Origin: Acidobacteriota bacterium
GTDB lineage: Bacteria > Acidobacteriota > UBA6911 > RPQK01 > JAJDTT01
NCBI GenBank assembly: GCA_965231825.1
Contig: OZ246889.1
Span: 4,441,859-4,505,858 of the forward strand
Direction: 5' to 3'
DNA length: 64,000 nucleotides
Part shown: positions 4,258 to 6,933 of the stretch, piece by piece
How the letters are laid out: each line of letters begins with the position of its first letter
How positions within the stretch are numbered: the stretch's first letter is position 1
Notes under the pieces: generated by a model
The model's input: the letters and a program-made list of their open reading frames with translations, nothing else
The model's database searches: none
Told to the model about the DNA's origin: nothing
Program-made: the position numbers and the translations under genes

Positions 4258-6933
4258 CTACCCTTCCCGAGGCAACAGGGTCAAGAAAGCGGACTGGCTC
4301 GGGTCTTTCGCCAGGAAGCGCCGCACCCACCACTGGCCGGACGCCGACGCCACGGCTTCACCGAACAGTCTCGCGTCGTTGTCCATGCCTCGGGCGAACC
4401 CGTGTTCGTAGCCGAACCGCAGGGATGTCAACGCCAGGCGGGCCGCAAACTCGCGGGCGGCCCGCAGGTCTTCCGCTGCTTCGCCGGCGGGCGTAGGCGA
4501 TTGCAGGATTCGCTTCACGGCATCGCTTCCGTAAAGCGCGTCCAACTCCCGGCTCTGACCGGCTGCGCGCCCGTCCCAATCGGCCGCCTGGAATCGGCGC
4601 ACACCGGACCGGAGCTCGTCCGCTACCCGGAACGCCCTGGTCAGGGCGGTGGCGGCGGGATGGAACTCGTGAGCCAGCCCGATCCGCACTGCCGTTCGTC
4701 CGTCCGCCGACTCTCCGTTGACCGCCATCTCGGCGGCTCGCCGCGGACCGACGAGCCTCGGCAGCCGCTGCATGCCCCCGTATCCGGGAATGATGCCGAG
4801 TTTCACTTCCGGCTGTCCGATGACGGCGTTTTCGGTGACGATCCGGTAGTGGGTACTCATGGCCAGCTCGTTGCCGCCTCCCAGCGCGAAGCCGTCCACG
4901 ATCGACACGACGGGTAGAGGCAGGGTTTCCAGCCGCCGGAAGAGCGCCATGTTCTCCGCCGCCAGACGCCGGACAGAATCCGCGTCCCCGCCCACGAAGC
5001 CCTGGACGTCGGCTCCCGCCACGAACGCCCGTCCCGAGCCGCGCAGGATCAGAGCGCTTGTCTTCTCTCCGTGGAGGGTTCCGTACGCTCCAAGCTCGTC
5101 CGTCAGTTCGGCGAGCTGGGCCAGCAGTTCCTGGTTGAGGGCGTTTAAGGCGTCCGGCCGCCGGAGGGTGAGGATTCCCACCTCGTCAATCAGGCTCAAG
5201 TCGATGAACCGGCCGTCTTCCGGGTCGGCGTTGCGGAACGTCTTGCCCAGGTACTCCGCCTCGTAGTCTGAGATCTTCCGGCCAGGAGCGTCCGCCTGAA
5301 CCAGCGCCACCCCCTTGGGTTTCGCCATGGTGCCGTCCAGCATCTTCTGCTGGACCTCCGGCAAACCCGCCAGATCGACTACCTCCAGGTCCTCCTGGTC
5401 CATGACGATCCGGTTCCGGGCCAGGAGGCGGACGGTCTCCCGGGCTTGGGCCGCTCGATACATGTGGGATCCGGAGACGGTCAGATCGGCCGACCCCTGG
5501 GCGACGATGATGCCGCACGACATCTCGTCCTTCTCGTCATGGTCCCTCAACAGGAAGGTGCTGACATGGAGCGTACTCTGATCGGGACGCTCCACGATGA
5601 AGTCCGGGCTGATCCGAAGGCCGAAGACTTCCCAGATGGCCCTCCCGAGAGCCCGGGCGTCCAGCATGAAGTCCGACATGTAGGCGGGATTCGGGGTCCC
5701 CTCGTCAGTCAGCGGGTCCGGCATGTCGATTGGTAGCCGGAACCGGTCGCGATCGATGATCTGCGACTCGGTGAGGCCCATCCGGTGCAGGGCGGCCAGT
5801 CCCTCCGATTCCCGGGAACGGGACGCGACCACCACCAGGTCGGCCCGCCGCCGCAACGCCGCCTCGACGAACTCCCGCGCGTACCGGTCGGCGCCCCAGA
5901 CCAACCCTCTCCGCCCCGGCAGCAGGCCGATCTCCGAAAAGATCTCCGCCGGGGTCCCGCTCCGAAAGAGGACCTGCTTCTGGCGCATCCAGACCCAGCG
6001 GGCGTCCAGAACGAAGCGGCAGCCGTCGTAGAAGAAGGTCTCCTTGTATTCCCCCTTCAGGCCCCGGCCGGTGGCGCCGAAGAACGCGAGCCGCCCCTTC
6101 GGGCCGAGAACCGAGACGAGCAAAGGAAAGTTGGCGCCCCCGGTATGCTCGAAGACCGTGTCCACCGGCCGACCTTCGTTGGCGGCCAGCACGATTCGGC
6201 GGAAGGGTTCGGTCCGGGCGGACCACCGGTCATATTCTTCCGCGACGTCGACCACGCCGAAGACCTCGGCCGGGATCTGCCGCCGGTCGACGAAGGCGTC
6301 GGCGATTCCCCGTTCGATGAGGGATCGGCCCAACGACGGATTGGACCCCATAAGGACCACACGGGCTCCAAGGGCCTTTCCCAGTTGCGCCGCGGCGAAG
6401 CTGGTTCCCTTCCCGCCTCCCAGGACCAGCATGGAATCTCCCGGACCGACGGCCAGACGCTCCACCACGGTGCGGTAGGCCGTTCCGTACGTGAGCAGCA
6501 TGGCCGAAAGCTGCTCGGGGCTGTGACCGCCCAAGGATGGAGGCACCGGGATGGCCCGCTCCTCGTCCACCATGGCGAACTGAGCATTGAACCCGTCGTG
6601 GGTCTCGTAGCCCCGGATGTTGTGCCCGGTCCAGGAATCCAGGATGACGGCCTGGCCCGCCTTCACCGTCCGGACCGCGGGACCGGCATCCACCACGATG
6701 CCCAGGGCGTCGCTTCCCGGAATGTGCAGGGTGGCGCTGTCGCCCCGGGCAAAGACGGGAACCGGCAGCCCCAGAGCCGCGAAATTGGTATTGAAGTTGG
6801 GTCCGCTGGCCAACACCGCCACCAGGACTCCCCTGGCGTCCGCAGCGCGGAGGCGTGGAACCTCGACCTGTTCCAGGCGGACCACGTCCCGCGGCGGACC
6901 GTATCGGTCCCGGTACAGGGTCAGGGCATGCAT
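4258..6933 (-). CDS. crotonyl-CoA carboxylase/reductase-like (MDR) enoyl reductase fused to enoyl-CoA hydratase/isomerase (crotonase)
   Basis: The N-terminal ~420 aa align by eye with CCR family (HIPGSDALGIV..., GYETHDGFNAQFAMV, TYGTAYRTV, VDTVFEHTGGANFP, LDARWVWMRQKQV). A second partial MDR-like half follows (GRAIWEVFG...DFIVERPDQSTLHVSTF). The C-terminal ~300 aa are crotonase (ILRGSGRAFVAGADV, SIVDGFALGGGNELAMSTHYRIV, GQPEVKLGIIPGYGGMQRLPRLVG). Start chosen at MHALTLYRD; the ORF upstream of it is alternate-frame read-through of the neighbouring DUF1501 gene. Confidence 0.7.
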   Translation of the reverse strand: MHALTLYRDRYGPPRDVVRLEQVEVPRLRAADARGVLVAVLASGPNFNTNFAALGLPVPVFARGDSATLHIPGSDALGIVVDAGPAVRTVKAGQAVILDSWTGHNIRGYETHDGFNAQFAMVDEERAIPVPPSLGGHSPEQLSAMLLTYGTAYRTVVERLAVGPGDSMLVLGGGKGTSFAAAQLGKALGARVVLMGSNPSLGRSLIERGIADAFVDRRQIPAEVFGVVDVAEEYDRWSARTEPFRRIVLAANEGRPVDTVFEHTGGANFPLLVSVLGPKGRLAFFGATGRGLKGEYKETFFYDGCRFVLDARWVWMRQKQVLFRSGTPAEIFSEIGLLPGRRGLVWGADRYAREFVEAALRRRADLVVVASRSRESEGLAALHRMGLTESQIIDRDRFRLPIDMPDPLTDEGTPNPAYMSDFMLDARALGRAIWEVFGLRISPDFIVERPDQSTLHVSTFLLRDHDEKDEMSCGIIVAQGSADLTVSGSHMYRAAQARETVRLLARNRIVMDQEDLEVVDLAGLPEVQQKMLDGTMAKPKGVALVQADAPGRKISDYEAEYLGKTFRNADPEDGRFIDLSLIDEVGILTLRRPDALNALNQELLAQLAELTDELGAYGTLHGEKTSALILRGSGRAFVAGADVQGFVGGDADSVRRLAAENMALFRRLETLPLPVVSIVDGFALGGGNELAMSTHYRIVTENAVIGQPEVKLGIIPGYGGMQRLPRLVGPRRAAEMAVNGESADGRTAVRIGLAHEFHPAATALTRAFRVADELRSGVRRFQAADWDGRAAGQSRELDALYGSDAVKRILQSPTPAGEAAEDLRAAREFAARLALTSLRFGYEHGFARGMDNDARLFGEAVASASGQWWVRRFLAKDPSQSAFLTLLPREG

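Follow-up and report, generated by a model that had tools for sequence, protein, structure and literature searches.

A 64,000-nucleotide stretch of an Acidobacteriota metagenome-assembled genome (MAG; assembly GCA_965231825.1, contig OZ246889.1, positions 4,441,859 to 4,505,858), hereafter the window, carries a gene that raises a simple question: what would a bacterium do with an enzyme like crotonyl-CoA carboxylase/reductase (CCR) and an enoyl-CoA hydratase joined in one polypeptide? The protein is best explained as a predicted bifunctional acyl-CoA enzyme, in which an NADPH-dependent enoyl-CoA reductase of the type found in CCRs and in propionyl-CoA synthase (Pcs; residues 1-578) precedes a crotonase-type hydratase or dehydratase (residues 601-917). 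Very probably it combines a short-chain 3-hydroxyacyl-CoA dehydratase with an enoyl-CoA reductase or carboxylase. We see an even chance that, more specifically, it converts 3-hydroxypropionyl-CoA via acrylyl-CoA to propionyl-CoA, the second and third of the three steps catalysed by Pcs, with the fusion limiting the escape of acrylyl-CoA. The two-enzyme fusion itself is real, widely conserved and not previously described in the papers that we found. Residues are numbered in a 917-residue protein unless stated; Pfam and NCBIfam ranges, and the query ranges of the Pcs alignments, follow the numbering of a shorter, 891-residue product.

The gene occupies positions 4258-7011 of the minus strand as a single uninterrupted frame of 917 codons that ends at a TGA stop (4258-4260), and the plus-strand translation of 4258-6933 is riddled with stops. 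A previous interpretation made from the DNA letters alone (the sequence-only reading) had started the protein at the ATG at 6931-6933 and given it 892 residues. The frame from that ATG encodes 891 residues, and translation probably begins instead from the GTG at 7009-7011, which lies 78 nt upstream and adds 26 residues. We place the gene at 4258-7011 because a database protein of 917 residues (P0001) is 100% identical to the GTG-start product, because the added residues hold a motif, 'WPLG..P....P..M.AL', that is kept in homologues and aligns with 'LGe.PPLG..P..MyA' of CCRs, and because the tblastn matches of relatives begin at residues 1-11 of the longer protein. A DUF1501 gene does lie upstream on the same strand, as had been noted; its stop is at 7023-7025, so that the gap to the GTG start is about 11 nt and not the 90 bp given before. 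A longer open reading frame (ORF) up to 7263 overlaps the DUF1501 gene in another frame and is read-through, which was also recognised in the sequence-only reading.

That both enzymes belong to one gene is borne out by the homologues as well as by the continuous frame. At least 120 homologue clusters (90% identity level; 63-100% identical, 822-982 aa), from independent assemblies and several phyla, share the near-full-length architecture, with query coverage of 100% in 119 of the 120 clusters listed and 92% in the exception (P0109, 822 aa). Structure prediction gave a confident single-chain AlphaFold2 model, built from 36 homologues (pLDDT 84.5, pTM 0.82); invariance in the fusion protein refers below to these 36. 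Two adjacent genes joined by an error of sequencing or assembly therefore have a negligible probability of explaining the locus, and a frame split by a sequencing error is ruled out by the continuous frame, the homologues and the loci in species-representative genomes.

The architecture is unusual, as first described, but it is not rare. Its source records carry only the names enoyl-CoA hydratase(-related) or zinc-binding dehydrogenase, and a literature search found no paper on the reductase-hydratase architecture of the window protein. When the library is clustered at 50% identity, about one representative of the full-length family remains, P0021, together with a fused protein, P0121, described below. 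P0021 derives from a Pseudomonadales MAG, and 98 index blocks record it. The gene is present at 18 loci of species-representative genomes, all of them MAGs; the host lineages comprise Acidobacteriota, Desulfobacterales and other 'Deltaproteobacteria', Deferrimicrobiaceae, Accumulibacter, Chloroflexia, Anaerolineaceae and Actinomycetes. The window locus itself is 95% identical to chromosome OY764083.1.

How far does the first half of the protein deserve comparison with CCRs? Pfam recognises ADH_N at 36-131 and ADH_zinc_N at 180-291, the domains of a medium-chain dehydrogenase/reductase (MDR), and the top NCBIfam match is TIGR01751 (crotonyl-CoA carboxylase/reductase; aa 1-321), whose 169.8 bits are less than half of the equivalog cutoff of 378.55 bits. 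Among protein families and PDB entries it is CCRs and Pcs that match best, and CCR-specific residues are kept; the N-terminal domain is not a generic MDR of the quinone-oxidoreductase kind, in line with the CCR-like character proposed for it from the letters. Its GroES-like catalytic part (aa 1-185; 6457-7011, minus strand), delimited by ADH_N, TIGR01751 and CCR alignments, contains N74-T75, S100 and Y135-E136, which are invariant or nearly so; the active-site loops at 70-100 and 133-139 are modelled with low confidence. There follows a Rossmann domain (domain 1, aa 186-352; 5956-6456, minus strand) that is predicted to bind NADPH, as assigned by ADH_zinc_N, by alignment to the M. extorquens enzyme 4GI2 and by the secondary structure of the model. 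Domain 1 carries the motifs 'GGGKGTS' and 'VFEHTGG' and the CCR signature DARWVWMRQKQV, G198-G202 are invariant, and residues ~265-353 of 4GI2 align to it, including DARYVWMRQKRI.

After domain 1, the sequence-only reading had described a partial second MDR half. A duplicated cofactor-type segment is indeed present, but it is neither partial nor placed after the reductase: the CCR C-terminal block, from 'SGSHMY' (H516) to 'KPKGVALV', resumes at 514-571, which puts the segment inside the MDR fold, and its secondary structure in the model is that of a whole Rossmann-like alpha/beta domain, about 160 aa long (aa 353-512; 5476-5955, minus strand). Its limits follow from the alignment to AntE (4Y0K), the AlphaFold2 model, a MAFFT alignment with Pcs-type proteins and the Foldseek match to Pcs (6EQO). 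In this insert 'WGAD' replaces the glycine-rich loop and 'LGRAIWEVFG....PDFIVERPDQSTL' provides CCR-like motifs; the model shows a beta-alpha-beta pattern at a pLDDT of ~90, and the domain is alignable to the matching insert, which every Pcs-type protein of the MAFFT alignment (taken from the representative search) possesses. Residues 289-386 of AntE align to it (i-E 0.003), whereas in 4GI2 this stretch of the CCR sequence finds its match in domain 1. When the profiles of the two domains are compared with each other, they match in register but weakly (E 0.099), so the claim of a Rossmann duplication rests mainly on CCRs aligning to both copies. Domain 1 likely binds NADPH, and the inserted domain probably has a structural role. 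The C-terminal catalytic part of the reductase (aa 513-578; 5278-5475, minus strand), defined by the AntE 'LQGSH...' alignment and by MAFFT with Pcs-type proteins and with P0175, a CCR-like protein considered below, includes the invariant stretch G514-Y518.

A linker (aa 579-600; 5212-5277, minus strand) between the MDR and ECH profile matches leads to the second enzyme. Its crotonase-fold core (aa 601-805; 4597-5211, minus strand) is identified by ECH_1 (585-776, 138 bits against a gathering cutoff of 27) and by alignments to 6LVP and to the dehydratase domain of Pcs, and is followed by a helical extension (aa 806-917; 4261-4596, minus strand) that is all-helical in the model, aligns to Pcs 1101-1203 and is reached by the ECH_2 (585-857) and FadJ profiles. 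The oxyanion-hole motif 'FVAGAD', the 'GGGNE' motif with G711-G713 and E715, and 'GQPE' with E735 are all invariant; we take E715 and E735 to be the positions of E144 and E164 in rat enoyl-CoA hydratase. The hydratase is thus complete, with the oxyanion-hole and GGG motifs that the sequence-only reading had picked out. It matches 6LVP with 119 bits and the Pcs dehydratase stretch with 96.5 bits, the whole protein scores 162 bits with NF005803 and 154 bits with NF004475, and the 3-hydroxypropionyl-CoA dehydratase structure 5ZAI is among the top matches of the domain (2e-32).

Taken over both domains, the best PDB sequence match is Pcs of Erythrobacter sp. NAP1 (6EQO): query residues 585-877 align to its dehydratase domain (906-1203) and residues 9-463 to its reductase (1265-1727), the latter alignment running through the insert. 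Foldseek with the model likewise returns 6EQO first (E 4e-33, 659 columns, TMq 0.53), followed by CCRs (TMq 0.34-0.37). The two proteins share the extra Rossmann-like domain within the MDR fold of the reductase, the C-terminal helical extension on the hydratase domain and the joining of the same two chemistries in one chain. They also differ, and in the ways that the sequence-only reading had drawn. Pcs contains a ligase, whereas Pfam finds no AMP-binding or acyl-CoA ligase domain here, and the order is reductase then hydratase rather than the reverse. To these differences we can add that identity between the reductase and Pcs-type reductases is only 24-27%, that the 'WMRQ(K/R)' motif follows domain 2 in Pcs-type proteins and domain 1 in the window family (MAFFT), and that the CO2-anchoring Asn is followed by Asp in Pcs and by Thr in the window protein. 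The shifted placement of WMRQK is compatible with one ancient tandem duplication and reciprocal loss.

The reductase half, searched against the PDB by itself, scores 108.8 bits with AntE, 107.5 with 4GI2 and 64.8 with 6EQO, and in an all-against-all BLAST it reaches 65-145 bits to Pcs-type reductases, compared with 240-700 bits among the Pcs-type reductases themselves. By these comparisons it forms a separate deep clade outside the Pcs clade, nearer to true CCRs in sequence. With CCRs and other enoyl-CoA carboxylases/reductases (Ecrs), represented by K. setae Ccr (6OWE), 4GI2, AntE and CinF (4A0S), it shares the motifs 'PLG..P..M.A', 'DAR(Y/W)VWMRQK' and 'GSH', the residues of the CO2 pocket with a second-shell Thr and Ser, and TIGR01751 as top NCBIfam match. 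Those enzymes are MDRs of ~400-450 aa with a single Rossmann domain; the reductase part here, in contrast, has ~578 aa and two Rossmann-type domains, with the 160-aa insert lying between 'WMRQKQVLF' and 'GSH', is fused to a hydratase and scores under half of the TIGR01751 cutoff. The window protein belongs neither to the Ccr equivalog nor to Pcs proper, since the defining features of each were looked for and are not all there. Our verdict is that it would do the work of the dehydratase-reductase part of Pcs, with a Ccr-like reductase in place of the Pcs one.

Does the reductase retain the means to bind CO2? In K. setae Ccr the CO2 pocket consists of N81, F170, E171 and H365 (PMC6628652). By alignment to AntE and 4GI2, this tetrad maps to N74, Y135, E136 and H516, all four invariant, so that the Asn/Phe/Glu/His set named in the sequence-only reading as worth checking is kept, with Tyr in place of Phe. 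Tyr at position 170 occurs naturally in some Ecrs, and the F170Y variant carboxylates fully (PMC6628652). The second-shell residues T82 and S119 of K. setae Ccr map to the invariant T75 and S100, and the T82D variant of that enzyme is >50-fold slower (PMC6628652). Pcs-type reductases carry the same tetrad (N, Y/F, E, H; MAFFT alignment), yet Pcs works as a reductase, and its latent, promiscuous carboxylation had to be raised by engineering (PMC10176493); the tetrad is therefore necessary and not sufficient, and the pocket residues do not decide between reduction and carboxylation. At the position of T82, counting in the alignment, Pcs has Asp (D1302). A D1302S mutation reportedly featured in the engineering of a Pcs carboxylase, and played no part in our evidence.

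Related proteins show that the arrangement of these domains is variable. P0155 (939 aa) belongs to the Pcs clade, is ~33% identical to the window protein overall, and like it has reductase before hydratase and no ligase; an automated JGI annotation gives it the Pcs activities. P0164, of the same clade, shares the reductase-hydratase order, and P0147 (2388 aa), also of the Pcs clade, combines ECH_2, an ACS-like ligase, reductase and ECH. The reductases of these three differ from that of the window family, scoring 350-500 bits to canonical Pcs against 100-145 bits to the window family. Domain order thus varies inside the Pcs clade, as P0147 and P0155 place the reductase before a hydratase. P0148 (6910 aa, with the match at 2419-3345), also of the Pcs clade and with the reductase ahead of the hydratase, seems to be a read-through of several genes. 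P0175 (711 aa) is a double-Rossmann CCR-like reductase with a C-terminal region that, read by eye, resembles a MaoC-type hot-dog hydratase motif; if this reading is right, it would be a third way to pair such a reductase with a hydratase. The same net reaction as proposed here is also carried out by unfused enzymes, the 5ZAI dehydratase with separate acrylyl-CoA reductases (AcuI/YhdH, archaeal MDR); the reductase half matches 17 PDB sequences (E <= 1e-5), and none of these is a chain named AcuI or YhdH.

What substrate, then, does the pair receive? One pointer comes from relatives. All-against-all clustering of the ORFs of 20 loci and the window found no neighbour family common across phyla except an extension resembling malonyl-CoA reductase (Mcr), and the remaining shared neighbours are restricted to close Acidobacteriota relatives. 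In L014, L015, L018, L026 and P0121, a 63%-identical orthologue runs on in the same ORF into an extension of ~1660 aa, giving giant fused proteins of 2,552-2,647 aa (L014:1584-9527, L015:9968-17716, L018:3498-11126; likewise L026 and P0121). Elsewhere the extension is the next gene, at a spacing of 1 nt in L021, with a 4-nt overlap in L095, and also in L093 (7236-15007) and the Kow00128_13080/13090 pair. Some 100 clusters carry it, fused or free-standing at ~1,660-1,680 aa, and the reductase-hydratase gene lies directly upstream in every free-standing case examined; the hosts are 'Deltaproteobacteria', Deferrimicrobium and other MAGs.

The extension consists of a ~510-aa region, an Mcr-C-like short-chain dehydrogenase/reductase (SDR) module and an Mcr-N-like SDR module, with ~300 aa after each SDR. 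Its top PDB match is Chloroflexus malonyl-CoA reductase (8HJW): residues 531-741 align to Mcr-C 572-778 and residues 1083-1301 to Mcr-N 5-214, the halves standing in the opposite order in Chloroflexus Mcr. The malonate-binding residues of Chloroflexus Mcr-C, S719, Y731, R734, Y737 and R773 (bioRxiv 10.1101/2023.03.21.533589), align to the invariant T678, Y692, R695, Y698 and R735 of the extension. Both SDR modules have Y-x-x-R-x-x-Y together with a Thr, the R773 equivalent is kept in the first, and 'T...YLFRTIYTVSK' of the second matches 'T...YYGRIPYVTPK' of Mcr-N; the Y-x-x-R-x-x-Y motif was not found in two ordinary SDRs of the window. From this we infer that the extension may be an Mcr-like enzyme converting malonyl-CoA to 3-hydroxypropionate. 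Its first ~510-530 aa have no Pfam match, no PDB sequence match and no Foldseek match in the PDB (best E 0.16); they are nonetheless conserved (alignment A3; for example L093:10001-11600) and modelled well by AlphaFold2 (pLDDT 84, pTM 0.77). By its position alone, this region is a candidate for the step from 3-hydroxypropionate to its CoA ester. An ADP-forming acyl-CoA synthetase was considered as the missing ligase and rejected, as it occurs only near L093 and L095, two related loci; the AlaDh_PNT, CoaE, SIR2 and SCP2 neighbours of the same loci look like lineage synteny.

Based on these data, we propose that a separate ligase or CoA-transferase would provide 3-hydroxypropionyl-CoA and that the hydratase domain, through E715, E735 and a backbone oxyanion hole, would dehydrate this short 3-hydroxyacyl-CoA to the 2-enoyl-CoA. 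The reductase would then pass a hydride from NADPH, bound in Rossmann domain 1, to the beta-carbon, and protonation of the resulting enolate would yield the saturated acyl-CoA. The fusion, perhaps with the Rossmann-like insert serving as a structural wall or interface, would keep the reactive acrylyl-CoA from escaping. The identities of the domains, their catalytic residues, the homology to Pcs and CCRs and the Mcr-like protein joined or adjacent to the enzyme in relatives are findings, and the substrate, the direction of the reaction, the channelling and the role of the inserted domain are our predictions. The product of Mcr is 3-hydroxypropionate, from which the proposed substrate would be formed, and the Mcr-like partner of relatives is for this reason counted in favour of a 3-hydroxypropionate route. 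The best match of both domains to Pcs, the invariant catalytic glutamates and reductase motifs, the 5ZAI match of the hydratase and the JGI annotation of P0155 are likewise counted in its favour.

Several observations weigh against this proposal. The reductase lies outside the Pcs clade and closer to genuine CCRs, and its full CCR CO2 pocket makes carboxylation or C4 substrates possible. The step from 3-hydroxypropionate to the CoA ester has no assigned catalyst, and the assignment as a whole is a predicted one. The 64-kb window holds no other acyl-CoA, 3-hydroxypropionate or propionate genes, and the Mcr-like partner was found neither in the window nor within +/-10 kb of the Acidobacteriota, Pseudomonadales, Desulfobacterales and other loci, so that the functional link to Mcr rests on the 63%-identical orthologues. 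Domain by domain, moreover, generic SDRs match the extension with scores at least as high as those of Mcr, which is why specific residues were compared, and the first module of the extension aligns a Gln to the Lys of the canonical YxxxK, a Lys standing at +7 instead.

These points bear on what else the protein might do. It is somewhat unlikely, though it is the main rival reading, that the reductase is a true reductive carboxylase whose enolate attacks CO2, turning 3-hydroxypropionyl-CoA, via acrylyl-CoA, into (2S)-methylmalonyl-CoA or 3-hydroxybutyryl-CoA, via crotonyl-CoA, into ethylmalonyl-CoA. The invariant pocket tetrad with its tolerated Tyr, the retention of T75 and S100 where Pcs has the Asp that slows Ccr, the higher scores with true CCRs than with Pcs, the signature 'DARWVWMRQK' and the CCR N-terminal motif all speak for it, as does a Tara annotation assigning K14446, which we take to denote the ccr orthologue. 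Set against this are the shared tetrad and merely latent carboxylation of Pcs, a TIGR01751 score far below the cutoff, an insertion of 160 aa that alters the fold context, and the low model confidence of the active-site loops. Quite unlikely, in our judgement, is a substrate of C4 or longer, in which (S)-3-hydroxybutyryl-CoA would pass through crotonyl-CoA to butyryl-CoA in a pathway that has nothing to do with 3-hydroxypropionate, be it polyhydroxybutyrate (PHB) turnover, reverse beta-oxidation or fermentation. The hydratase does score equally well against generic short-chain crotonases (NF005803, NF004475, 6LVP), the nearest characterised relatives of the reductase use crotonyl-CoA or longer enoyl-CoAs, and the gene occurs in a lineage that accumulates polyhydroxyalkanoates (Accumulibacter MAG). 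The sole recurrent genomic partner, however, carries the dicarboxylate-binding residues of Mcr and is not a thiolase, PhaB or a Bcd-type enzyme; no conserved beta-oxidation or PHB genes stand alongside in the loci compared, and the protein that matches best overall, Pcs, acts on C3 substrates.

A different arrangement of the same chemistry would have the two domains act in parallel on acrylyl-CoA derived from acrylate or dimethylsulfoniopropionate (DMSP), the reductase forming propionyl-CoA in the manner of AcuI and the hydratase forming 3-hydroxypropionyl-CoA in the manner of AcuH. Both reactions are chemically available to the domains, and the widely recorded P0021 cluster includes Tara Oceans ocean-metagenome records. 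A cupin gene directly downstream in L089 and L090 has a weak precomputed Pfam match to DMSP_lyase as well, but this cupin is generic (germin and oxalate-oxidase PDB matches), and with no DMSP lyase among the 48 PDB matches listed we set the hint aside. The host of the window is an Acidobacteriota MAG, the relatives of the family are mostly non-marine MAGs, and the Mcr-like link argues for a serial route from 3-hydroxypropionate; we therefore regard such a detoxifying role as very unlikely.

The 3-hydroxypropionate bi-cycle has Pcs and Mcr as its signature enzymes, and Pcs is also a textbook example of how a protein can sequester a toxic intermediate. Here its dehydratase-reductase pair occurs without the ligase, in reversed order, with a reductase that resembles the CO2-fixing Ccr more closely than the Pcs reductase does, and in several phyla of uncultured bacteria. 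If our proposal is right, the Mcr-like fusions would span most of a route from malonyl-CoA to propionyl-CoA or methylmalonyl-CoA, pointing to an unrecognised carbon route in uncultured bacteria. The family also provides a handle on the evolutionary assembly of Pcs and Mcr as well as new parts for synthetic CO2-fixation pathways. Surveys that report no enzymes of the 3-hydroxypropionate pathway, such as the genome analysis of Deferrimicrobia/MBNT15 (PMC9386147), may overlook this reductase-hydratase/Mcr-like system. It is also conceivable, though unlikely, that the protein is a dehydratase joined to an acrylyl-CoA carboxylase/reductase that, with the Mcr-like partner, would lead from malonyl-CoA via 3-hydroxypropionate to methylmalonyl-CoA without an ATP-dependent propionyl-CoA carboxylase. 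Were this true, nature would have its own version of the synthetic HOPAC-type route and of synthetic acrylyl-CoA-carboxylating cycles, and uncultured Deferrimicrobia-like, Acidobacteriota and other bacteria would harbour a CO2-assimilating module that has gone unrecognised.

The rest of the window gives no hint of the function: besides three PSCyt/DUF1501 cassettes and genes of the FG-GAP/ASPIC type it encodes peptidases and transporters, and the studied gene is its only acyl-CoA gene. The cassettes, of PSCyt2/PSD1 (DUF1549/DUF1553) with DUF1501, lie at 31-3540 (plus strand), 7023-11149 (minus) and 52049-55996 (minus); a Big_2 domain is also found in two of the large proteins, and the studied gene stands directly downstream of the second cassette only in the close relatives L009 and L010. 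Four tandem FG-GAP/ASPIC (UnbV) repeat genes, with a gene rich in tetratricopeptide repeats between the second and third, occupy 29339-38198 (minus), and two tandem M19 membrane-dipeptidase paralogues 23683-26388 (minus). Across 16001-22000 the GC content falls to 0.53-0.58, compared with ~0.62-0.66 elsewhere in the window; a CarboxypepD_reg/Plug (TonB-dependent-receptor-like) gene (17463-20285) and a 541-aa ORF with no Pfam match (20570-22195) lie in this dip. An ORF of 176 aa with no Pfam match (3718-4248, plus strand) converges on the studied gene at its 3' end and is kept at the same position in the Acidobacteriota relatives L002, L009, L010 and L011.

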